From: Candidatus Magasanikiibacteriota bacterium
Lineage (GTDB): Bacteria > Patescibacteriota > Patescibacteriia > Magasanikbacterales > GWA2-37-8
DNA: 64,000 nucleotides
Reading direction: 5' to 3'
NCBI GenBank assembly: GCA_023246655.1
Contig: JAHFHX010000002.1
Coordinates: 31,693-95,692 of the forward strand
In this document: piece after piece, positions 3,229-58,954 of the stretch
Position numbering within the stretch: position 1 is the first letter of the stretch
How the letters are laid out: each line of letters begins with the position of its first letter
Notes under the pieces: generated by a model
The model's database searches: none
Seen by the model: the letters and a program-made list of their open reading frames with translations, nothing else
Told to the model about the DNA's origin: nothing
Program-made: the position numbers and the translations under genes

Positions 3229-3338
3229 AAATTTTTAATTTACAATTTTCAATTTATACTGAATTTTCAATGTCTCAATTTTCATTGAAAATTAGTAAAT
3301 TGAATCATTGATTGAAAATTAAAAATTAGAAATTGAAA
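3229..3338. repeat. AT-rich dyad element (family D; TTTTCAAT x3 ... ATTGAAAA x4) between tsaC and prfB.
   Basis: The words caattttcaatt and attgaaaattaaaaatt recur at 29733-29800 and 21285-21303. Confidence 0.45.
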
Positions 3339-3339
3339 A

Positions 3340-4416
3340 TTATTTTTTAATCCACCTCAAATACGCCTCGCACAATGGCATTAAGTCTCCTTCTAAAACT
3401 TCTTCTGGATTCGTGGCCTTGTATTCCATGCGATGATCATTAACCATGTGATACGGATGCAACACGTATGAGCGAATCTGGTTTCCCCATTCTGCAGACT
3501 TGTATTCGCCACGTAACTCTTGCCGTTCTTTCGCCATTTTTTCTTCTTCGAGACGATGTAATTTGGCTTTCAGAACTTTCATAGCGACTTCTTTGTTTTG
3601 GGTTTGCGAGCGTTCGTTTTGGCATTGGACGGTGAGGCCGGTGGGAATGTGGACGATGCGGACGGCCGAGTAAGTAGTGTTCACACTCTGCCCACCTTTA
3701 CCGCCACTCATAAAAGTATCAACTCTCAAATCTTCTGGCTTGATCTCAATTTTGATCTCATCACTAAGCTCGGGCAAAACTTCAATGAGTGCAAATGACG
3801 TGTGCCTCATCTTCTCCGCGTCAAACGGAGAAATGCGAACTAAACGATGTACGCCATGTTCAGATTTTAAATAACCAAAAGCATAGCGGCCTTTCACTTC
3901 AAACATCACAGATTTATAACCCGCTTCCTGCCCACGCGATTCGTCAATAATACGCGTTGACCAGCCTTGCTTTTCACAAAACCTCATTACCATTCGAAGC
4001 AACATCTCCGCCCAATCTTGGGCCTCGGTACCACCACTGCCAGCGTGGATAGCCACGATGGCGCTGTTTTTGTCGTATGGCCCATTAAGGAGAAGAAAAA
4101 ATTCGTAGTCGGTAAATTGCTTTTCCAATTCAGCAGTTTGTTTTTCAATTTCGGTAGTGAGCGATGCATCACCAGACTTATCTAGCTCAATTAACTCGTC
4201 TACTTGTTTGCTTAGAGCATCCCATTTTTCTACTTCACTTTTGATATCTTGATAATCCTGAGAAACTGTTTGCGCGTTTTCAGGATTACCCCAAAAATTG
4301 GGCTGGTTCATTTCATCCCCGAGCTGTTGTAATTTATTTCTTAAACTATCAATCTTGAGAAGCTGGGTTGTTTGTTGAATTTTCTCTTTTAATAAATTCA
4401 ATCGTTCAATCGTCAT
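3340..4416 (-). CDS. prfB: Peptide chain release factor 2.
   Basis: GGQ motif (SGGKGGQSVNTT) and the RF2-specific SPF motif (RISPFDAEK). The 358-aa ORF is contiguous. Confidence 0.9.
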   Translation of the reverse strand: MTIERLNLLKEKIQQTTQLLKIDSLRNKLQQLGDEMNQPNFWGNPENAQTVSQDYQDIKSEVEKWDALSKQVDELIELDKSGDASLTTEIEKQTAELEKQFTDYEFFLLLNGPYDKNSAIVAIHAGSGGTEAQDWAEMLLRMVMRFCEKQGWSTRIIDESRGQEAGYKSVMFEVKGRYAFGYLKSEHGVHRLVRISPFDAEKMRHTSFALIEVLPELSDEIKIEIKPEDLRVDTFMSGGKGGQSVNTTYSAVRIVHIPTGLTVQCQNERSQTQNKEVAMKVLKAKLHRLEEEKMAKERQELRGEYKSAEWGNQIRSYVLHPYHMVNDHRMEYKATNPEEVLEGDLMPLCEAYLRWIKK

Positions 4417-6364: not shown

Positions 6365-6598
6365 GGGCACCTCCTCCCCCGCTTGCAAACAGCCTTTTGG
6401 CTGTATACCGCATAAGGAGGGGGGATCCCACACGGCAAGCAGAACATCTCTTAAAGATAGGCTACTTGCCGAGAAGGAATTACATTTAAAAAGAACTTAT
6501 TTTCTTTTATAACTATACAGAATAGCATAAAATTTTATTTTTGTCAAGTATTATTTACTCATTGAGTGATTTGTGTGGATAACTAATACCTTATATTA

Positions 6599-12419: not shown

Positions 12420-12518
12420 GCGCGGTGATCTTATCCACATTGCAAGGTGTAAAGTTTACTTTACACCTTTTTTAATTGTGATATACTACCATTCAATTAG
12501 ACTTAACTTCACAACACT

Positions 12519-13108: not shown

Positions 13109-13221
13109 TGTCATTGCGAGCGAAACGGAGAGTGAAGCGAAGCAATCTCCCTGTTTAAGTAATTCTCAAATCCAGGGGATTGCCACGTCGTTCGCCGCGA
13201 GGCTCACTCCTCGCAATGACA
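13109..13221. repeat. Family-A palindromic element (intergenic).
   Basis: gtcattgcgagcgaaacggag...gcaatctccc...ggggattgcc...ctcctcgcaatgaca. Confidence 0.7.
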
Positions 13222-13257
13222 CACTACCACCTACAACCTAATTCTTAATTCCTCATT

Positions 13258-19622: not shown

Positions 19623-21296
<1,674 letters not shown>

Positions 21297-21303
21297 TTAG
21301 AAA

Positions 21304-21408
21304 TTGTCATTCCGAGGAGCGAGGAACAAGTGACGTGGCGATCTCCCCGACATGAGACATCGACGGGGAGATTGCTTCGTCGTCGTGCGAGCTCCTTCTC
21401 GCAATGAC
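21304..21408. repeat. Family-A palindromic element inserted between groES and groEL.
   Basis: gtcattccgaggagcgagg...gatctcccc...ggggagattgc...ttctcgcaatgaca. Confidence 0.7.
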
Positions 21409-21410
21409 AG

Positions 21411-21689
21411 TTATTTGACGACAGCAAGAATATCCCCTTGCGACACAATCTTATATTCCTCTTTCTCGAGTTCGACCTTATCCCCCCCCCAGCTCTTGAG
21501 CAAAACTACATCGCCTGCCTTTACATCCATTGCTTGGCGCTTGCCATCATCCATCATTTTGCCAGGGCCGACTGCTACGACTTCGGCTTCGGGCAACTCT
21601 TTTTCATTGGTGAGAATGATGCCGGATTTAGTTTTTTCCTCTTTTTTTTGTTTGACGAGAACGTTATCTCCGAGTGGTTGTATATTCAT
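21411..21689 (-). CDS. groS: Co-chaperonin GroES.
   Basis: MNIQPLGDNVLVKQ...AVGPGKMMDDGKRQAMDVKAGDVVL. Confidence 0.95.
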   Translation of the reverse strand: MNIQPLGDNVLVKQKKEEKTKSGIILTNEKELPEAEVVAVGPGKMMDDGKRQAMDVKAGDVVLLKSWGGDKVELEKEEYKIVSQGDILAVVK

Positions 21690-21801
21690 AAATTTAAAAA
21701 ATATTTAATTGTTAAAAATGTGCGAACGTACGAATGGTACGAAATTTACGAAAGCTTCGTCTCTTTCGTATTTTTCGTAATTTCGCACATAATTTCGACC
21801 T

Positions 21802-21828
21802 TTATCACTCTTATTATTTGAGTGCTAA
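21802..21828. promoter_or_regulatory. CIRCE heat-shock operator (HrcA binding site) upstream of groES.
   Basis: TTATCACTC-N9-GAGTGCTAA versus the consensus TTAGCACTC-N9-GAGTGCTAA. Confidence 0.75.
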
Positions 21829-21873
21829 TGCGTATGCATTTTACTCTAAAATCAAAAACTGTCAAGAGAGCTC

Positions 21874-22467
21874 TTGAGTAAATTTATCCACAAGAAAATT
21901 TCGCTCAAAATATTGTTTTATGAGCCCAAAGCTGCTATGCTGATAATACTTATTTCCTCCATATTTATGGACCGACACCCTGCACTACAACTTGAAAAAA
22001 CTGAGGCTGAGCACCATTTAGAATATGAAAGATGCTGGCAAAAATTAGTAACTGCTGCCCAAGAAGAGCGTCAGCATAGTGAATCGCATCGTAGCTTTAA
22101 GGTTGGTTGTGCAATGCTCGCCTGGAATGGAAAACGATATGAAATTTTTGCTGGGTCCAACTTTAAACCTCATAAAAACGACAAAACTGTCTGCGCAGAA
22201 AAAGAAGCGCTGAGGAAAATTCGTGAAAATGGTTTTGAACGGGTGATAGCGATTGTAGTTGTTTCCCAACACTCTCATACTGAGCCAACCCAAGAAGACT
22301 CAACCAAAACTCTGTCTCCGTGTGCGGAATGTCAACAGATGTTTCGAGACGCTCAGGAAATTAAACCGACCACAATACTTACTACCATCAACGATTCGAA
22401 CATGGACACTGCAAATCAGAGTGGTGGTATTATTCAAGAACGGACCGTGGCTGATGTAATAAAGTAG
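21874..22467 (+). CDS. Cytidine/deoxycytidylate-deaminase-family zinc protein.
   Basis: CAEKEAL (C/H-A-E) and SPCAECQQM (PCxxC) zinc motifs. Confidence 0.5.
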   Translation: MSKFIHKKISLKILFYEPKAAMLIILISSIFMDRHPALQLEKTEAEHHLEYERCWQKLVTAAQEERQHSESHRSFKVGCAMLAWNGKRYEIFAGSNFKPHKNDKTVCAEKEALRKIRENGFERVIAIVVVSQHSHTEPTQEDSTKTLSPCAECQQMFRDAQEIKPTTILTTINDSNMDTANQSGGIIQERTVADVIK

Positions 22468-25971: not shown

Positions 25972-26769
25972 TTATTTAACTATTTCTCCTTCAATTACTG
26001 TGCCACTTGATGGCGGAGTGTGAGTAGATTTTTTAGTAATGATAAGTTGTTGCAGCACCATGAGTGCCGTACTCAAAAACCAATAGAGCGTCAGCCCTGC
26101 CGGAAATCTAATACCAATAATAGCGGTCATAACTGGCATCATATACAGCATTTGCTTGTTCATCATGGCCGCCATGCCTTCGTCTTTTCCGCCTTCACCC
26201 GCTTCCTTCGGTGGCTGTTTTCGACTTAAGGTCTTAGCTTGGAAGAATTGGGCCACACCAGCGAGTAGTGCCAACACAATGCTGGGTTTAGCTAAATTAA
26301 TAAATCCGAGTGACATGGCATTAATAGTACCAGGGTTATGCACAAATGAGTATAGGTTCTCGCCTAACTTATTGGAGGCAAGCCCATCTCGGAGAACCCA
26401 AAAAAGAGCCAGGAGAATAGGAAGTTGAATAAGCATGGGCAGACAGGAACTCAGTGGGTTAATTTTATGCTTTTTATACAATTCCATTGTGGCTTGGGCC
26501 TGCTTTTGTTTATCATTGACGTATTCTTTTTGAATGTGCTGGAGCTTTGGCTGAAGCTCAGCCATGGATTTTTGGGCTCTGATGGAAGAGTTAGTTAGTG
26601 GATATAAGACAAGCCGTATCAACACCGTCACCACAAAAATTACTATACCCACATCGTGACCAGGAAGAATGTTGTACAACTCAACAAAAAGATTGAAGAT
26701 GGGCTTATAGAGAACGAGATGGAAGAGAGAAGAGATCATAACGAAAAAATGACAAATAACAAATTTCAA
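25972..26769 (-). CDS. yidC: Membrane protein insertase YidC (short form).
   Basis: ...KINPLSSCLPMLIQLPILLALFWVL...YMMPVMTAIIGIRFPAGLTLYWFLS. Confidence 0.85.
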   Translation of the reverse strand: MKFVICHFFVMISSLFHLVLYKPIFNLFVELYNILPGHDVGIVIFVVTVLIRLVLYPLTNSSIRAQKSMAELQPKLQHIQKEYVNDKQKQAQATMELYKKHKINPLSSCLPMLIQLPILLALFWVLRDGLASNKLGENLYSFVHNPGTINAMSLGFINLAKPSIVLALLAGVAQFFQAKTLSRKQPPKEAGEGGKDEGMAAMMNKQMLYMMPVMTAIIGIRFPAGLTLYWFLSTALMVLQQLIITKKSTHTPPSSGTVIEGEIVK

Positions 26770-26857
26770 ATGTCAAATAAAATTCAAAATCCAAAAATCA
26801 AATTTTGACATTTGAGTTTTGGGCTTGATTTGATATTTGTCATTTGGATTTTTGGAA

Positions 26858-29104: not shown

Positions 29105-29731
29105 TTAAATTTTACTCAATATCTTTAAAGGCGTTTTTCCAAAAATTTTTACCTTGTCTCCCACATCTAAAAATTTATACAATTTTTCGGCATTTTTGTA
29201 GGCAATGTTGACGCAACCATGGCTCATGGGACGCTTACCAAATTGGTTATGCCAATAGGCACCATGAAGATAGAACCCGGGCTTAAACTGAAGATTCCAT
29301 TTGGTATTGGGTAAATCATACCCTGGGCCAACATAATGAACGATCGGACGTTTCCTTTGAATGGAAAATTCGCCAATCGGAGTTGGGAGCTTGGAGATGC
29401 CACTTGAGATTGGAATCGTTCCAATTTTTACATTATTTAAAAAATAACTCATTTGTTGAGTCGCTAAATCAACTGCCACATAACGCGGGAGGCTGCGGTC
29501 ACGGTTGGCTTTTAGCGGATTGAAACCATTTTTAACTTCAATGCCGTCCGGATAGCCATCGGTGTCAGTATCGGAATTATGGGGGTCAGTGCCAAGCTGG
29601 GTTTCAATGGTATCGGAGAGACCGTCGTGATCGGAATCAAGTTCTTGAGCATGAGCAAAGAGAGGGCTTATCATCCAAATGGAAACAAATATATAAATAA
29701 TGACCTTTTTAAGCTGCATAATAATTTTCAA
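29105..29731 (-). CDS. Secreted L,D-transpeptidase (YkuD) with Asp-rich calcium-binding-type repeats.
   Basis: Signal peptide, DSDHDGLSDT.../DTDTDGYPDGIE repeats, and the catalytic HGCVNIAYKNAEKL. Confidence 0.8.
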   Translation of the reverse strand: MKIIMQLKKVIIYIFVSIWMISPLFAHAQELDSDHDGLSDTIETQLGTDPHNSDTDTDGYPDGIEVKNGFNPLKANRDRSLPRYVAVDLATQQMSYFLNNVKIGTIPISSGISKLPTPIGEFSIQRKRPIVHYVGPGYDLPNTKWNLQFKPGFYLHGAYWHNQFGKRPMSHGCVNIAYKNAEKLYKFLDVGDKVKIFGKTPLKILSKI

Positions 29732-29732
29732 T

Positions 29733-29800
29733 TTTTAATTTACAATCAAGCACCAATGTTCCAATGATCAATTGAAAATTAAAAATTGTAAATTGAGAAT
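29733..29800. repeat. AT-rich near-perfect inverted repeat (family D).
   Basis: aattttcaatttttaatttacaat ... attgtaaattaaaaattgaaaa orientation pair. The words are shared with 3229-3338. Confidence 0.5.
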
Positions 29801-29801
29801 T

Positions 29802-38585: not shown

Positions 38586-38969
38586 TTACGCAGATTTGTG
38601 ATAGTAAACTACGCGTTGGAATTCTAGACTTGGATTTCCGAAGTTGAGAATTAAACCAATTTCTAATTCCGATGCCTTTAAATAAGAGACGAGTTGAGCT
38701 TGAAATATTTTTGGCATTTTTCCTGAAATAGCTTTAATTTCTATGACTACTTTTTTATCAACAATGAGATCGACTCTAAAATCGCCAATTTTAATCTTTT
38801 TCCAGTATACTTTAAAAGGTTGTTCTGTTTCAACTTTATTACCAGCTTCTTCAAGGATTGCAATCATTCCCTTGTGATAAATAATTTCCTTAAAACCTGG
38901 ACCCAATTCCGTGTGCAGCTTCATTGCCAGACCAATAATTTGTCGAGTTAACGTCTCCTCCTTAAACAT
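38586..38969 (-). CDS. GxxExxY protein (PD-(D/E)XK-like).
   Basis: ELGPGFKEIIYHKGM matches GxxExxY. Confidence 0.7.
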   Translation of the reverse strand: MFKEETLTRQIIGLAMKLHTELGPGFKEIIYHKGMIAILEEAGNKVETEQPFKVYWKKIKIGDFRVDLIVDKKVVIEIKAISGKMPKIFQAQLVSYLKASELEIGLILNFGNPSLEFQRVVYYHKSA

Positions 38970-40470: not shown

Positions 40471-41499
40471 TCATCGCTGACATTTTGGACAATAATGCGT
40501 CCCCCGCCCTGCCGCCTTAATTTTCTTAATCACTATCCCACATTGCTTGCACGGCTGCCCGTCACGATCGTAAACTTTAAGGAAATCTGTGTAATTACCT
40601 TTTTTACCAGAGCTGTCAAGAAAATTTCGGAAGGTTGTGCCGCGATGTTTGAGGGCTTCCTGAAGAATTACAGGAATAGCGTGGAATAATTTTTTTTGCT
40701 CTTCTTTTGTCACGGAACCAACACGACGATTGGGACGAACGCCAGCCCGAAAGCAGGCTTCATCAACATAGATGTTGCCTAAGCCCGCGATGAGTTCTTG
40801 ATTGAGGAGCAATGCTTTGAGATTAGTATTTTTTCTTTTTTTGAAGAGGGAGGAGAAATAGTCAAAACTAAATTCCTGGGAACGAGCCCTCACCCTGCGT
40901 CCCTCTCCCGCAGGGCGAGGAAGCGAAATGGGTTCAGGGCCATATTTTTTAAGCACTCTTTCAACTTCAGTTTGAGAAGCTAATTTCATATACCCAAACA
41001 GGCGGAGGTCATTAAAAAATAACTCTCCCCCATCGGCAAACACAAAAACAATTCTGGTCCACTGATTTGGCAAACATTCAATATCTTTTTCCGAAAGTTT
41101 ATGGCCGCCCGCGACTATCTCGATTTCATTTTTTATTTTCTTCTCATAAATAAGCTGGCCGGTCATTTTGAGGTGGACGAGCAAAGCGCCGACTTTTTTG
41201 TCATTTCGAATCCCCCGTCGCAGGGGGTGAGAAATCTCTGGCTCACCGACGACGGACAGAGATTCCTCGTCGCCGCGAGTCTCGCTCGGAATGATAATTG
41301 AACGCTTGAGATACCAAATCATCAGTTTGCCACGGCGCTCAATTTTAGTAATAGCGTTACCGGTGAGTGCGTGAACAAATTTTGTACTCATGCCGCCGAC
41401 ACTCTTTTTATTACGTACCTCAACGTGAACAATTTTCTTGTTCAAGATCTTTTTTTCTAAATCGCGGCGGATGGTTTCAACTTCGGGGAGCTCGGGCAT
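40471..41499 (-). CDS. mutM: Formamidopyrimidine-DNA glycosylase MutM/Fpg with in-frame family-B and family-C inserts.
   Basis: True N-terminus is MPELPEVETIRRDL. C-terminal zinc finger CKQCG...CPKCQ. Confidence 0.85.
   Translation of the reverse strand: MPELPEVETIRRDLEKKILNKKIVHVEVRNKKSVGGMSTKFVHALTGNAITKIERRGKLMIWYLKRSIIIPSETRGDEESLSVVGEPEISHPLRRGIRNDKKVGALLVHLKMTGQLIYEKKIKNEIEIVAGGHKLSEKDIECLPNQWTRIVFVFADGGELFFNDLRLFGYMKLASQTEVERVLKKYGPEPISLPRPAGEGRRVRARSQEFSFDYFSSLFKKRKNTNLKALLLNQELIAGLGNIYVDEACFRAGVRPNRRVGSVTKEEQKKLFHAIPVILQEALKHRGTTFRNFLDSSGKKGNYTDFLKVYDRDGQPCKQCGIVIKKIKAAGRGTHYCPKCQR
41199..41297. repeat. Family-B element, in frame in fpg.
   Basis: gtcatttcgaatcccccgtcgcagggggtgagaaatctctggctcaccgacgacggacagagattcctc...ctcgctcggaatga. 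Confidence 0.7.
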
Positions 41500-41661
41500 A
41501 GAAGTACAGTTAGTGGTGAGATTAATTCCATTGCAATGTACGAAATTACGAACTTTACGAAAATACGAAAACAATTTTATTTTATCTCAACTTACTGCTT
41601 TAAACAAGATAAGACGCCCTTTGAGGGCGTCTGCTGTTTACTCTTATCTATTTTCTGTTTA

Positions 41662-41982
41662 TTAAATATTCTTCTCCATCATCGCCTTTAATTTCTCTTT
41701 CTGTGTGCCGCCAATAAATTGATCGACCATTTGTCCGCCTTTAAAGATAAGGAAGGTTGGAATACTCATCACATTAAATTGTCCGGCGGTATTTGGGTTC
41801 TCATCTACATTGAGTTTGCCAATTTTAATATTTTTGCCAGCCATTTCTTTAGCCAGTTCCTCTACAATTGGCCCCATCATGCGGCACGGGCCGCACCAGG
41901 GTGCCCAGAAATCGACGAATACAGGTTTGTCAGACTTTAATACTTCTTGGTCAAAATTTTGGTCGGTTAAAATTAGCTCCAT
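41662..41982 (-). CDS. trxA: Thioredoxin.
   Basis: [14 protein letters not shown]...[12 protein letters not shown]. Confidence 0.9.
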
Positions 41983-42081
41983 ATGTTTAATTTTAGGATT
42001 ACACGAATGGGCCTTGAGGCCCCACGAATAACACGGATACAATTGTATTCGCACGATTCGTGGCGCCGCAGCGCATTCGTG

Positions 42082-44103
42082 TTATCCCAATATCAACTTC
42101 TTCTCTTTTGTTTCTTCCTTATACGCCTCGAGTACATCACCAACTTCTAATTTTAACTTGCCCTCAAATTGTAATCCACATTCGCTGCCGCCTGGCACTT
42201 CATTCATAGTTTGTTTGCCAATTTGGAGCTGGCTGATTTTACCGCGACCAATGAGCTCATTCCCGCGTTTTACCCGCACCAAAATATTTTTGTAGAGTTT
42301 ACCAGATTCCACGCGGCCACCCACTACCATAAGATTTTTTTCGGTTCGGAAAATAGCAACCAATTTAAAGTTACCAAGTTCAGTTGTTATTACCTCGGGC
42401 ACTAAGAGCTTTTCCATCTCGGCCTTTACCATATCCAGGAGGTTGTAAATGATGTGATATTGTTCAAAATGGGTATGAGCGGTTTGGATCATCTCCTGAG
42501 ATACCGGAGTAGTAGACACATTAAAACCTACCAAAATAGCATTCGCCGTTTGCGCTAGGGAGACATCGTCTGCCGATATATTGCCAAGACCTTTGCCAAC
42601 AACTTTGACACCAACTTCTTCATGCTTAAGATTGGCCAACGAACCCAAAATTGCCTCCAGCGAACCAAGCGCATCGGCTTTAATGAGGAGATTCAACCAT
42701 TTCTTCTTTTCTTCGCCCTCAGTGGTTTCGGCTGGTACGGACACTGTGGATTTTTCGGCACCGGTCTGCTCGGAACGTTTACTGCGGACATCAACTTTTC
42801 CGGCCGATTCGGCTTTACCAACATCAAGCACATCACCAACCCGGGGGGCAATTTTAAAACCAAGAATACGAGCCGGGCAGCTTGGTGGTGCTTCGGCAAT
42901 TGATTCACCGCGATGGTTTTTAAGCGCCTTCACTTTGCCATAAATTTCCCCGTTGATGACCAACGGATCGTTCGTATGAAGAGTCCCTGTTTGCACTAAA
43001 ATAGTGGCAACTGGTCCGGCTGCTTTATCCACATGTGCTTCAATTACGGTGCCCGCGGCTGCTCGATTGGGGTTGGCTTTAATGCTTTCCCCCCGCACTT
43101 CGGCCACCACCAGCAAGGTGTCGAGTAGCTTATCAATATTTTTATTTTCTTTCGCGGAAATTTCTACCACCGGCACATCCCCGCCCCAATCTTCGGAAAT
43201 AATATCGTGCTGTCCCAAGTCGCTCCTCACACGCTGCACATCAGCGCCGGGTTTATCAATTTTGTTAATAGCAACAACAAACGGAAGCTTAGCAGCTTTA
43301 ATAATATTTATCGCTTCCACTGTCTGGGGCTTCACACTGTCATCAGCTGCAACAACCAGAATGGCAATATCCGCCACTTTGGCACCGCGACTACGCATAA
43401 CGGTAAAGGCTTCGTGGCCTGGTGTATCAATAAATGTTAATGGACTATTGGCTTTTGTTTTTGGATTTTTCCAAATTACTTGATAGGCACCAATGTGCTG
43501 AGTAATGCCACCGGCTTCACCTTCCATAACGTTGGTGTGGCGAATGGCGTCGAGCAATCGCGTTTTGCCATGATCAACATGGCCCATTACTACAATCACA
43601 GGCGGCCGTGCCGATCCACCTTCGGCCGCAAGCGCGGTGGCCAAATCCTGCACGTGTGATGTTGTTTCCACACTCTCCCCACTTGCTTTTTCTTCCTCCA
43701 CTCCAAAACCTAATTCCTCAGCAATAAGCATGGCGGTGTCATGATCAATATTTTCATTCTGCGCTGCCAAAATACCATTTTTCATTAGTTCCACAATCAG
43801 TTTGTTGATCGGAATTTGCAATCGATCGGCCAGCTCGCGTACCGTCAATACCGCGGGAATCATTACTTTGGCACCACTGGCCTTACGCGCTTCTTTTTCT
43901 AGTTCTCGCTGTTTAACTTTTTCGGTTTGCTCGCGCTGCTCGAGCACAAATTTAATGCGGCGCCAATCTTTTTGGATTTGTTGCCCTACCCGATCATCAA
44001 TTTTTACTGCCTTTGCGCCAATATCAAAACCAAACTCAGGCAAAATTTGCAAAAGCTTTACAGGATGGATGCGGAGTTGGCGAGCGAGTTCGGAGACATT
44101 CAT
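42082..44103 (-). CDS. infB: Translation initiation factor IF-2.
   Basis: True start is MNVSELARQL. G-domain VVMGHVDHGKTRLLD, DTPGHEAF, NKID. Confidence 0.9.
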   Translation of the reverse strand: MNVSELARQLRIHPVKLLQILPEFGFDIGAKAVKIDDRVGQQIQKDWRRIKFVLEQREQTEKVKQRELEKEARKASGAKVMIPAVLTVRELADRLQIPINKLIVELMKNGILAAQNENIDHDTAMLIAEELGFGVEEEKASGESVETTSHVQDLATALAAEGGSARPPVIVVMGHVDHGKTRLLDAIRHTNVMEGEAGGITQHIGAYQVIWKNPKTKANSPLTFIDTPGHEAFTVMRSRGAKVADIAILVVAADDSVKPQTVEAINIIKAAKLPFVVAINKIDKPGADVQRVRSDLGQHDIISEDWGGDVPVVEISAKENKNIDKLLDTLLVVAEVRGESIKANPNRAAAGTVIEAHVDKAAGPVATILVQTGTLHTNDPLVINGEIYGKVKALKNHRGESIAEAPPSCPARILGFKIAPRVGDVLDVGKAESAGKVDVRSKRSEQTGAEKSTVSVPAETTEGEEKKKWLNLLIKADALGSLEAILGSLANLKHEEVGVKVVGKGLGNISADDVSLAQTANAILVGFNVSTTPVSQEMIQTAHTHFEQYHIIYNLLDMVKAEMEKLLVPEVITTELGNFKLVAIFRTEKNLMVVGGRVESGKLYKNILVRVKRGNELIGRGKISQLQIGKQTMNEVPGGSECGLQFEGKLKLEVGDVLEAYKEETKEKKLILG

Positions 44104-44717: not shown

Positions 44718-45013
44718 GCCCCGATTCGTGGGGCAACGCAGACAACCGCACCTACGCGGCTCGTCTCGGACTATGTCCTTGATGGCGAGCCGCTTCCCAA
44801 ATTCCGTACAACGGATTTTTTTGTTTTTAAGACCCACCTAATCTAAGAGGGTTTATCCACACTGGACAAAATCACAGAAATGATGTAGGGTGATGGGTGG
44901 TTCTTTTTTGTTTGTTAAAACAAACCCGAGCGACTATTGTGCTGAGAAACCTATTTATCAGCAGACTGGTCGCCCGGTTTTTGTGGGGCGATACTTGAAC
45001 GGAGGTCTAAGCG

Positions 45014-48706: not shown

Positions 48707-48913
48707 AAGTCTGAAAGTTAAAAGTCCTTAAAGTCTATTAAAGTAATTAATTGGCGACTTTACGACTTTTGACTTTCAACTTTATGGACTTCATAAGGGT
48801 GTGGATAAGTGGTTTGTGCTAACTGTAGCTAAAAAATATAGAAGTGCTATAATTACTAACGTAAATTAGCCAAAAAAATTACTTTAGACTTTAATTAATT
48901 AAGTACGTTCACT

Positions 48914-56769: not shown

Positions 56770-56837
56770 ACAATTAAATTGCAGATTGACTTTACTTTTC
56801 TTTTTAGATATCATTCTGGCTAACCGAAATACTATAC

Positions 56838-56911
56838 GTCAGGGTAGCTCAGACGGTTAGAGCGTAGCATTCATAACGCTAAGGTCGAGGGTTCAACTCC
56901 CTCCCCTGACA
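56838..56911 (+). tRNA. tRNA-Met (anticodon CAT, elongator-type; possibly Ile2-lysidine).
   Basis: GTCAGGGTAGCTCAGACGGTTAGAGCG...loop TTCATAA...GGTTCAACTCCCTCCCCTGACA. G1-C72 are paired, and there is no GGG/CCC run in the anticodon stem. Confidence 0.8.
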
Positions 56912-57304
56912 CACGGACGACGCCCAACTTTCGGCGTTGTGGACAACCAATTTGACCGGAATTTATACATAATATAAAATTAATTTAGTTCTTTCACAGT
57001 TTACTATCATGAGCGGTGCGAGGGAATCGGCCCTAAGACCACCCAGCAACCCCAGCTAAGTTTGGGGTGCTAATTCCGACCCTAAAAATAGGATAGGGAA
57101 AGATACGTCCCAATGCAGCTGTTGGAAATTGGCTTACATAAAGGCTCGTAACTCTTCCATCATTTTGGGGTTAGGAGCCTTTTTTGTTTTTAGCGAAAGA
57201 TATAGCACAGTAAATTGGCCGGACGATTGAATGACTTACTATAAGTTATACAACCGTCCGGGCAAAGCTGTTCAACCAAGCCCCGGATAGGATGGAGACC
57301 AGCG

Positions 57305-57496
57305 ATGGTCAGGCGTACCCCCGAGGAGATCGATAAGATCTCCGCCCCCAGCCTCAATTACAACCGCTTCACCACGGAGGAGGATGCCCGGCGCAATCGC
57401 GCCCGGCTCCCGCCGGACCATCCGCTCTATGAGCCCCTCCCGCCTGATGAGGCGTTGCGGGCTCTCTCCCCCACCCGCCCCCGCGCTTGCGCCTAG
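57305..57496 (+). CDS. Hypothetical 63-aa ORF in a about 65% GC islet.
   Basis: GGATGGAGaccagcgATG. Followed by a long hairpin. Confidence 0.3.
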   Translation: MVRRTPEEIDKISAPSLNYNRFTTEEDARRNRARLPPDHPLYEPLPPDEALRALSPTRPRACA

Positions 57497-57542
57497 CACC
57501 CCCAACCCTACTCTTGCGTTCCAAACTCGTAGGAGAGGCCGA

Positions 57543-57606
57543 GACGAGACCGCATCCCAGCTTATGTATTTAAATTTTTAAATACATAAGCTGCGGTCTC
57601 GTTAAT
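57543..57606 (+). terminator. Long imperfect hairpin terminator.
   Basis: gaccgcatcccagcttatgtatttaaa/tttaaatacataagctgcggtc. Confidence 0.5.
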
Positions 57607-57644
57607 TGGGCGCTCTACATCTGCCTACATAAGGCATTTTTTGT

Positions 57645-58937
57645 TTGCAAAAAAAAGATAAATCATGTAACGTGGAACACATGGCGTGTAAACTTACCGA
57701 CAGGTTCCACGTTTCACCTTATACGCTACATAATATGCTCGTTCTCGGTATCGAATCCTCTTGTGATGACACTTCCGTTGCCCTCGTCGACTGCTCCGAT
57801 CGAGGTCATGTTATTATTGCGGAAAAAATGGCGTCACAAATTGATATCCACACAAAATATGGCGGCGTAGTGCCAGAAATTGCCGGCCGGATGCATGCGG
57901 AAAAAATTGTGCCGCTCATTGAGGAGGTGATGAACGAGGGAAATAAGGAAATAAAGAAACAAGGAAATAGTGAGACAGTGGATAAACTAATTCATCCCGA
58001 CGTCATCGCTGTCACCGCCGGGCCGGGGCTCATCACGGGGCTCATTGTTGGGGTGGAGGCAGCGCGGACATTGTCGTATGCTTGGAATATCCCTCTGATT
58101 GCAGTGAACCATATTGAAGGACACATCCACAGCGTGGAAATTTCAAATAACAAATTCCAAATATCTTCCTTTCAATCAGGAAATGCAAATAAAATCCAAA
58201 ATCCAAAATCCAAAAACGATTCGTCTGCTCCCTACTCCCTACTCCCTACTCCCTTAATTGACTTCCCTGCCCTTTGCCTCGTAGTGAGTGGTGGTCACAC
58301 GGAATTAATTTCGATGAAAGATCATGGCGACTACAAAATTCTGGGGAGCACTAAAGATGATGCAGCAGGAGAATGTTTTGATAAGGTGGCTAAGTTACTA
58401 GGTCTCCCCTACCCTGGTGGACCGCAAATTTCACGGCTGGCAATGAGCGGGCGCACTGATGCGATTAATTTTCCGCGACCGATGCTTAAAGAAAAAAATT
58501 TTGATTTTAGTTTCGCTGGACTCAAAACTGCTGCCCTTTATTGGCTACGTGATAATGCGCAAACAGATTCTTCCACCTACCACCTACCACCTACCGGCCT
58601 AGCAGATTTCTGTGCTAGTTTTGAACAAGCTATTGTCGATGTATTAGTTGGTAAAGCCCTGCGCGCAGCTGAGGAAATTAAACCCAAAACGATTATCCTT
58701 GCCGGCGGCGTCGCCGCGAATAAAAAACTTCGCGAAACTCTCGGAGCACATATTCAATATCGTAATTCGGACGAACAGCCGTTTGCCCCTATAATCTACC
58801 TCTTACCAACTACCTCCTACGCCATGGACAACGGCGCAATGATTGCGGTGGCTGGATACTATCATGCCATCAAAAAAGAATTTACTGATTGGGATAAAAT
58901 TACGGTTGATCCAAATTGGAAAATAGAAAAATTATAA
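57645..58937 (+). CDS. tsaD: tRNA N6-adenosine threonylcarbamoyltransferase TsaD with low-complexity inserts.
   Basis: LVLGIESSCDDTSVALV...AVNHIEGHIHS...GGVAANKKLRE. Confidence 0.9.
   Translation: MQKKDKSCNVEHMACKLTDRFHVSPYTLHNMLVLGIESSCDDTSVALVDCSDRGHVIIAEKMASQIDIHTKYGGVVPEIAGRMHAEKIVPLIEEVMNEGNKEIKKQGNSETVDKLIHPDVIAVTAGPGLITGLIVGVEAARTLSYAWNIPLIAVNHIEGHIHSVEISNNKFQISSFQSGNANKIQNPKSKNDSSAPYSLLPTPLIDFPALCLVVSGGHTELISMKDHGDYKILGSTKDDAAGECFDKVAKLLGLPYPGGPQISRLAMSGRTDAINFPRPMLKEKNFDFSFAGLKTAALYWLRDNAQTDSSTYHLPPTGLADFCASFEQAIVDVLVGKALRAAEEIKPKTIILAGGVAANKKLRETLGAHIQYRNSDEQPFAPIIYLLPTTSYAMDNGAMIAVAGYYHAIKKEFTDWDKITVDPNWKIEKL
58191..58253 (+). repeat. Two adjacent 7-bp x3 tandem repeats (aaaatcc x3, then ctcccta x3) inside tsaD.
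   Basis: aaaatccaaaatccaaaatcc...ctccctactccctactccctactccc. The third array ccaccta x3 is at 58574-58596. Confidence 0.7.
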
Positions 58938-58954
58938 TTTATAAACTATAACGT

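Follow-up and report, generated by a model that had tools for sequence, protein, structure and literature searches.

A TACGAA word-array hairpin between CIRCE and groES in a Magasanikbacteria genome, probably a novel form of small dispersed intergenic repeat

In class I heat-shock operons, the CIRCE/HrcA operator lies between a sigma-70-type promoter and groES and consists of an inverted repeat of 9 bp around a spacer of 9 nt. REP, BIME and REPIN elements, as well as MITE-like repeats such as Correia, RUP and ERIC, are intergenic, hairpin-capable, multi-copy and genome-specific, are present or absent between close relatives, and occupy 5' UTRs and intra-operon spacers. The sites of ribbon-helix-helix proteins can also form arrays; the omega heptads of pSM19035, the ParG boxes of TP228 and the metboxes of MetJ are short boxes spaced 7-9 bp apart, in direct and inverted orientation, with conserved boxes and free spacers. 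Direct repeats of the heptamer TAACTGA have been described in intergenic regions of Beggiatoaceae, Cyanobacteria and Bacteroidetes (MacGregor 2015, PMC4679880), with 169 direct sets and one indirect set in the genome described (PMC4679880). TIGR arrays, which belong to TIGR-Tas and lie beside a Nop-domain Tas gene, consist of two alternating 8-12-nt repeats (edge and loop) with 9-nt spacers at 36 nt per unit, and have been reported from parasitic bacteria and phages (PMC12045711).

The hairpin described here is built from TACGAA words in the leader of groES, within a stretch of 64,000 nt that was analysed as a whole and is called the window. It shares with the REP and MITE-like repeats all of the properties named above, including the kind of site occupied. 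It differs from them in that a 6-nt box recurs every 7-9 nt with unconstrained spacers, in place of long unique terminal inverted repeats. No target-site duplication was seen in the flanks of 15 palindromic TACGAA elements, by which a MITE with such a duplication is rejected, and neither a RAYT nor any other transposase turned up among the scanned ORFs of the window or beside the elements at 36 loci. The closest published analogue found is the TAACTGA heptamer system (PMC4679880), which likewise consists of a short head-to-tail intergenic word near start codons, but the boxes here stand 1-3 variable bases apart and often form convergent, hairpin-capable pairs. Unlike the ribbon-helix-helix arrays, those described here are chromosomal, lie in transcribed leaders and intra-operon spacers, and comprise many box families per lineage, such that the likeness is a lead only. 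TIGR arrays and TACGAA arrays both interleave short conserved repeats with variable bases; a TIGR array was nevertheless ruled out by the 6-nt boxes, the 1-3-nt spacers and the lack of a Tas gene. In the literature, no description of CPR intergenic repeats or of TACGAA motifs was found.

Judged by the relatives of its GroEL and GroES, the window belongs to an uncultured member of Candidatus Magasanikbacteria (CPR/Patescibacteria). L001 (94% identity) and L024 (93%) give the best GroEL matches; the databases hold no relative above about 94% GroEL identity, and the next Wzy_C homologue is 50% identical. An identical leader was found in four other assemblies. Given that groES and groEL lie on the minus strand, the leader runs from 21870 down to 21690, and the features of the operon and its leader are as follows.

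19623 to 21275, minus strand: groEL, 550 aa by translation, 94% identical to Magasanikbacteria-type relatives
21306 to 21408, minus strand: dispersed palindromic element GTCATTGCGAG...CTCGGAATGAC in the groES-groEL spacer
21411 to 21689, minus strand: groES, 92 aa by translation, with a Cpn10 Pfam match for the same protein at the identical locus L081
21690 to 21717, minus strand: AT-rich 28 nt from the hairpin to the groES AUG, lacking a Shine-Dalgarno by direct reading and largely unpaired in the fold
21718 to 21790, minus strand: 73-nt quasi-palindrome of four plus four convergent TACGAA-type boxes spaced 8-9 nt, an inverted repeat and a stem-loop in the 5' UTR
21802 to 21828, minus strand: CIRCE operator, TTAGCACTC-N9-GAGTGATAA on the mRNA strand, the sole match in 64 kb against 0.01 expected
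21838 to 21865, minus strand: sigma-70-type promoter of groESL, TTGACA-16 nt-TAAAAT, agreeing with the consensus at 11 of 12 positions
21884 to 21892, minus strand: TGTGGATAA box, 18 nt 5' of the -35, a DnaA-box consensus read in reverse complement

The groES leaders of 78 relatives were extracted for comparison, and 59 of them carry a CIRCE-like site at this position. In the alignment with relatives (alignment A1) both CIRCE arms and the -35 hexamer of the promoter are invariant, and the -10 is conserved. CIRCE starts about 10 nt past the -10 hexamer, and groES begins at 21689. The operator of the window has one mismatch against the canonical TTAGCACTC-N9-GAGTGCTAA and none against the clade pattern TTAKCACTC-N9-GAGTGMTAA. 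Most of the clade has the symmetric variant TTATCACTC-N9-GAGTGATAA, whereas the window has a hybrid of one canonical and one variant arm. The one-mismatch CIRCE noticed in an earlier, sequence-only reading of the window is therefore borne out, between a strong sigma-70 promoter and groES and conserved in 59 of the 78 relatives. A scan of 40 window ORFs with Pfam did not find an HrcA domain. As judged from the alignment, promoter and CIRCE are the known regulatory content of the leader, ordinary and conserved; this part would be ancestral and would place groESL under standard negative control of the HrcA type.

The same reading had described repeated TACGAA and inverted TTCGTA words before groES that form a long imperfect hairpin, and such a hairpin does span 21718-21790. 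It follows CIRCE after a linker of 10 nt and has arms of 35 nt that are 77% complementary. On the plus strand the boxes read TGCGAA, TACGAA three times, then TTCGTC, TTCGTA twice and TTCGCA; in mRNA sense they read TGCGAA, TACGAA, TACGAA, GACGAA, then TTCGTA three times and TTCGCA. The 159-nt leader RNA is predicted to fold at -38.6 kcal/mol (z = -5.0), and the hairpin folded alone at -29.8 kcal/mol at 37 C. The word arrays are non-random: TACGAA occurs 16 times in the window, seven of these occurrences fall in two 30-nt clusters, and TACGAA-N2-3-TACGAA is matched six times across the window against 0.01 expected. Three or more such words within 80 nt occur in the whole window only in the leaders of groES, fpg and trxA.

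Two other identities for the hairpin were set aside. Rfam gave no family for the hairpins at gathering thresholds, by which a known RNA family is rejected; at E <= 1 the only matches were chance-level ones to microRNAs and sRNAs. A leader peptide was also considered, given as a 14-codon ORF, MCEITKNTKETKLS, from the first base of the hairpin. By inspection alone this ORF was judged incidental, because its ATG belongs to the palindrome and other members of the family end in GGA...TCC or CTC...GAG.

The two further leaders with such words lie next to each other, and their features are these.

40471 to 41499, minus strand: fpg, an ORF with its true start at ATG 41499 (MPELPEV), whose homologues have the Pfam domains Fapy_DNA_glyco, H2TH and zf-FPG
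41539 to 41569, plus strand: four exact TACGAA boxes spaced 8, 9 and 8 nt, read as TTCGTA in fpg mRNA sense, 40-70 nt 5' of the fpg ATG
41612 to 41632, minus strand: intrinsic terminator of trxA
41662 to 41982, minus strand: trxA, an ORF whose syntenic gene in L205 and L206 has a Thioredoxin Pfam match
41993 to 42090, minus strand: hairpin of about 98 nt from the infB stop codon to trxA, with two CACGAAT and two ATTCGTG words, -51.1 kcal/mol, z = -5.5

The recurrence of the words upstream of fpg, claimed earlier, holds for these four exact boxes, which are direct repeats alone, one-armed and lacking the inverted partner. The claim of related words before trxA holds in part: two CACGAAT and two ATTCGTG are indeed present within the hairpin of about 98 nt, but their kinship with TACGAA is limited to the ACGAA core.

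Comparison with the relatives shows the groES hairpin to be an insertion. From CIRCE to the ATG, relatives have a median of 37 nt, and the 112 nt of the window are made up of 39 nt plus the 73-nt hairpin, which aligns as a single insertion block (alignment A1). Among the groES leaders compared the window alone has the TACGAA hairpin; neither the closest relatives L001 and L024 nor any of the others compared carry it. Of the CIRCE-bearing leaders, 41 of 59 are short and unstructured, and the other 18 hold assorted, mutually unrelated inserts in the slot occupied by the hairpin. Seven of these 18 inserts belong to the dispersed family GTCATTGCGAG...CTCGCAATGAC (L010, L014, L024, L026, L049, L059 and L068); in the window this GTCATT family occupies the groES-groEL spacer, not the groES leader, and two further sites. 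Other inserts in the groES slot are word hairpins based on CGAAT (L073), CTGCGTA (L071) or GTAAATTAAG (L062).

A similar exchange is seen at two other places. The gene order infB-trxA-fpg is kept in the two closest genomes, L205 and L206, with different hairpin words. L205 has an AAGATTA/TAATCTT hairpin before trxA and an ATTGTTA/TAACAAT hairpin before fpg. L206 has two inverted word arrays around a 23S-rRNA-IVP/bAvd gene 5' of trxA and unrelated hairpins before fpg, and GAACA/ATGTT word hairpins are also among the contents of these slots in L205 and L206. In the Magasanikbacteria-type contig L176 a TACGAA palindrome occupies the argS-pyrD spacer, which in relatives with 80-85% ArgRS identity holds CGGAT or GCTTAAAA arrays instead. 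Presence or absence at orthologous sites, the test for a dispersed repeat, was found for the groES leader, the infB-trxA-fpg spacers and the argS-pyrD spacer. Among close relatives the slots are retained and their contents exchanged. Since the hairpin is missing in close relatives, it looks like a fast-changing intergenic repeat, not like a stress site or thermometer.

Word arrays of this kind are abundant. Defined as a 6-mer repeated at least three times with a spacing of 7-11 nt, and with composition-preserving shuffles as the control, 11 arrays were found in the window against 0.26 in shuffles. The loci of the relatives hold 108 arrays in 662 kb, or 10.4 per 64 kb, and many arrays are paired with an inverted array. 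Arrays of TACGAA itself number two in the 64-kb window and none in the 662 kb of the relatives' groESL loci. Within one genome a word family tends to have several copies, as with TTATCTC, TATCAT and CATCAC in relatives and with TACGAA and AATATC in the window. Two TACGAA elements lie within a few kb of each other in L124 and likewise in L158. The infB leader of the window holds CGGAT words, and intergenic spacers of at least 50 nt are often structured there (28 of 42 fold with z < -2 and 17 of 42 with z < -3). The CGGAT words are one example in the window of an array paired with an inverted one; others are the following.

3230 to 3342 and 29723 to 29801: arrays of the word AATTTTC
48715 to 48790: AAAGTC five times and GACTTT five times, 3' of rny

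At least 120 metagenome loci have three TACGAA boxes set 2-3 nt apart. Among the metagenome matches listed, an inverted array lies downstream of 30 and upstream of one of 126 TACGAA arrays, and the exact arrangement TACGAA-N-TACGAA-N3-TACGAA-N2-TACGAA, a 7-9-8 spacing, was present in 18-19 arrays, with the mirror spacing once. A generic property of tandem repeats is rejected by two controls: none of 120 TACGAA arrays among the listed matches in viral contigs has an inverted partner, and for AAGCAT, used as a control word, partners lie downstream in two and upstream in three of 121 arrays among the viral-contig matches listed. The 7-9-8 signature was likewise not seen among the matches listed in either the viral TACGAA set or the AAGCAT control set. 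With spacings of 8-9-9 (groES) and 8-9-8 (fpg), the copies in the window represent variant forms of this 7-9-8 module.

The TACGAA elements are more than slipped repeats or generic hairpins. When the two arms of 15 palindromic elements are compared, 96% of box positions are complementary, against 33% of spacer positions, which is the chance level; in 14 of 37 spacer pairs the lengths are unequal. Given that the boxes are conserved and the spacers are not, selection or the generating process would act on the boxes and their orientation and not on the whole stem. Such a pattern of nucleotide conservation suggests the signature of a protein-recognised array of sites on duplex DNA. Box conservation, fixed polarity and recurring spacing taken together suggest that the elements may have a function, and an effect on the neighbouring gene is possible.

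The neighbours of TACGAA elements elsewhere, as far as they were identified, are housekeeping genes unrelated to one another. They include prephenate dehydratase/dehydrogenase (pheA/tyrA), an ABC ATPase, NiFe hydrogenase, MraZ, MreB, ArgRS and DHODH (argS/pyrD), and ATP synthase gamma/alpha. In L122 the order of promoter, MraZ boxes, TACGAA palindrome and ATG repeats the layout of the groES leader with another operator. The element itself is not a MraZ operator, a candidate rejected both by L122, where three canonical AAAGTG MraZ boxes are separate and upstream of the element, and by L150, where the element lies 360 nt upstream of mraZ. An all-against-all comparison of the ORFs at 36 loci found no protein family that recurs beside the elements, and a protein gene linked to them is rejected on that account.

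The sequence-only reading had offered two explanations for the words on stress genes, namely a shared regulator site or RNA thermometer-like structures. Hairpins do sit in the 5' UTRs of groES and trxA, but thermometers that open on heat shock and permit translation of the stress genes are, according to the folding models, extremely improbable. The hairpin ends 28 nt 5' of the AUG, which together with the preceding 28 nt lies outside it, and there is no Shine-Dalgarno to mask. When the RNA was folded at 10-80 C, the predicted unpaired probability of the start region (positions -20 to +6) rose just from 0.54 at 10 C to 0.66 at 45 C, and the hairpin remained folded at 80 C in silico, by which a thermometer of the ROSE or fourU type is ruled out in silico. 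Neither is the structure conserved in orthologous leaders. The boxes could also be operators of a species-specific DNA-binding protein, with groES, fpg and perhaps trxA as a recently evolved regulon, and one candidate would be a ribbon-helix-helix-type protein that polymerises along the arrays with a period of less than one helical turn. Conserved boxes with free spacers, convergent fixed polarity with conserved spacing, and a 7-9-bp period like that of the omega, ParG and MetJ operator arrays are consistent with this, as is a word common to two of the 11 window arrays, both in transcribed leaders of stress-related genes. Such a regulon is nonetheless unlikely, since the sites are not kept upstream of orthologous genes; the groES hairpin is missing in L001 and L024, and L205 and L206 have other words before fpg and trxA. 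A shared stress-regulator site is not supported by these comparisons, nor by the elements elsewhere, which lie inside operons or beside unrelated genes, nor by five other redox/repair genes of the window (msrB, thioredoxin-like, dsbD, AhpC/redoxin and an HhH-GPD glycosylase), which have 0-2 words upstream. The proposed search for a cognate DNA-binding protein led to no candidate binder recurring near the elements of the 36 loci, and a genome of about 1 Mb could hardly encode a regulator for each of the many word families.

Rather unlikely, too, is a hairpin kept for a role at the RNA level, be it as an attenuator or terminator, as a site of processing by RNase III or RNase Y, or as a stem-loop that stabilises the mRNA and tunes groESL output. 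The structure is very stable and significant, its 9-bp basal stem runs directly into UUUUU, RNase Y is encoded in the window, and hairpins of differing words recur in the same slots of relatives, as if structure were wanted. Yet the leaders of 41 of the 59 relatives do without structure, the copy before fpg has no second arm, and a strong terminator before an essential chaperone operon would be improbable. Because the spacers between boxes are non-complementary and the arms unequal in length, conservation does not extend to the overall pairing. A wider reading is put forward tentatively, as a rather unlikely possibility: the TACGAA boxes may be a discrete and widespread module (four boxes, often 7-9-8, usually in convergent pairs) that a putative sequence-specific protein of Patescibacteria and other uncultured bacteria would bind, with other families such as CGGAT, AAAGTC and TTATCTC as parallel modules. 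Together these would form an undescribed system of dispersed nucleoprotein elements that either propagate themselves or serve an architectural role, and the non-coding DNA of these reduced genomes would be shaped by it.

The TACGAA hairpin is, on balance, probably a species-specific member of fast-changing intergenic word-array repeats, and its placement at groES and fpg would most likely reflect insertion-tolerant slots and not shared control. In kind it would be a novel form of small dispersed intergenic repeat, beside a CIRCE of known type. The second part of the groES leader is a 73-nt species-specific insertion, a quasi-palindrome of eight TACGAA-type boxes, and would belong to a genome-specific dispersed repeat family with a second, one-armed copy in the fpg leader. 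In Magasanikbacteria genomes, word-array elements would fill the scarce slots that tolerate insertion, namely the stretch of 5' UTR from operator to start codon and the spacers within operons, and close relatives have arrays of other words in the same slots. We infer that the family is spread or maintained through some protein that recognises the 6-bp box. The effect at groES is probably passive, given as a very stable stem-loop 5' of an unstructured, AT-rich stretch for ribosome loading, and any influence on expression would presumably be minor, on mRNA stability or processing at most.

For annotation, the regulating part of the leader (promoter plus CIRCE, with the variant consensus typical of the clade) can be separated from the lineage-specific insert, which should not be annotated as a stress operator or thermosensor. 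Non-coding DNA of CPR bacteria is scarce and almost unstudied, and here most intergenic spacers contain structured, fast-changing arrays of short words. In at least one word family the polarity is fixed, a spacing recurs and the bases between boxes are free, which points either to a way of generating or spreading such repeats that has gone unrecognised or to proteins, as yet undescribed, that bind the boxes.

Several other repeats were noted in passing. The palindromic element bounded by GTCATTGCGAG...CTCGCAATGAC is 100-130 nt long and has three copies in the window, at 469-596, about 13137-13255 and 21306-21408. AT-rich octamer arrays of the AATTCGTA type, often in convergent pairs, occur in GC-rich metagenome contigs (GC 0.60-0.65; L088, L094, L103, L110, L114, L163 and L169), so that such arrays also exist outside CPR genomes. 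Some of these arrays are, by inspection, directly 5' of the start codons of apparent housekeeping genes, rpsC in L103 and a small subunit of acetolactate synthase in L114. Direct repeats of heptamers such as TAGAAAT, AAATAAC, AATTTTC and AAATTAT stand immediately 5' of start codons, that of groEL included, where a Shine-Dalgarno would be expected, and resemble the published TAACTGA repeats. Their positions are these.

21284 to 21305, 26747 to 26802, 29723 to 29746 and 58929 to 58951 in the window: heptamer repeats at start codons
about 3900 to 4000, as locus positions in L023, L024, L049, L056, L059, L066, L073, L078 and L080: heptamer repeats at start codons of relatives

Perfect 7-nt tandem repeats (AAAATCC 3.6 times, CTCCCTA 3.9 times and CCACCTA 3.3 times) were also seen inside the TsaD frame, where the Pfam match is broken into two stretches; either repeats were inserted in frame or the start was miscalled. 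Small genes of the rRNA-intervening-sequence type (23S_rRNA_IVP/bAvd; PDDEXK_3) lie in slots bracketed by word arrays. The IVP gene of L206 stands between the two inverted arrays of the infB-trxA spacer, and in the window a CAGATT/AATCTG hairpin (z = -7.2) stands before the PDDEXK_3 gene and a further AATCTG arm after it.

57645 to 58937 in the window: tsaD ORF, with repeats inside at 58191 to 58254 and 58573 to 58595
966 to 1334 and 38586 to 38969 in the window, minus strand: small genes of the rRNA-intervening-sequence type
3007 to 3384 in L206: small gene of the same type

Upstream of the groESL promoter, the TGTGGATAA box is the reverse complement of the DnaA-box consensus TTATCCACA, and eight exact copies are present in the 64 kb. 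Five of the eight are intergenic and upstream of promoter-like sequence, at 21884-21892 (minus), 6574-6582 (plus), 12431-12439 (minus), 44853-44861 (minus) and 48800-48808 (plus). A TGTGGAWA box lies 5' of the groES -35 in 22 of the 78 relatives (L001, L002, L003, L016, L028 and others), mostly 16-19 nt away and almost always in the same orientation. These boxes may be a positioned promoter-upstream element or a regulatory site of the DnaA type.

Two other structured RNAs were also seen. An unannotated small RNA of about 130 nt, on the strand of groES and 0.1-1 kb upstream of it in 31 of 80 relatives, forms one long hairpin whose loop, CUGACAGGCAUC, is invariant, and its 3' end resembles a terminator. 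It matches no Rfam family, 28 of its 40 predicted pairs show compensatory changes, and a search of the window with a covariance model (R1) gave no copy. Copies are located as follows.

775 to 905 in L026, 3144 to 3274 in L034 and 3006 to 3136 in L029: small RNA of about 130 nt, with copies in 28 further relatives

The second is a SAM (S-box) riboswitch with a score of 57.9 bits at 57002-57109 (plus strand) of the window, within a highly structured non-coding stretch of 875 nt (56770-57644, z = -8.3) that also holds a tRNA.
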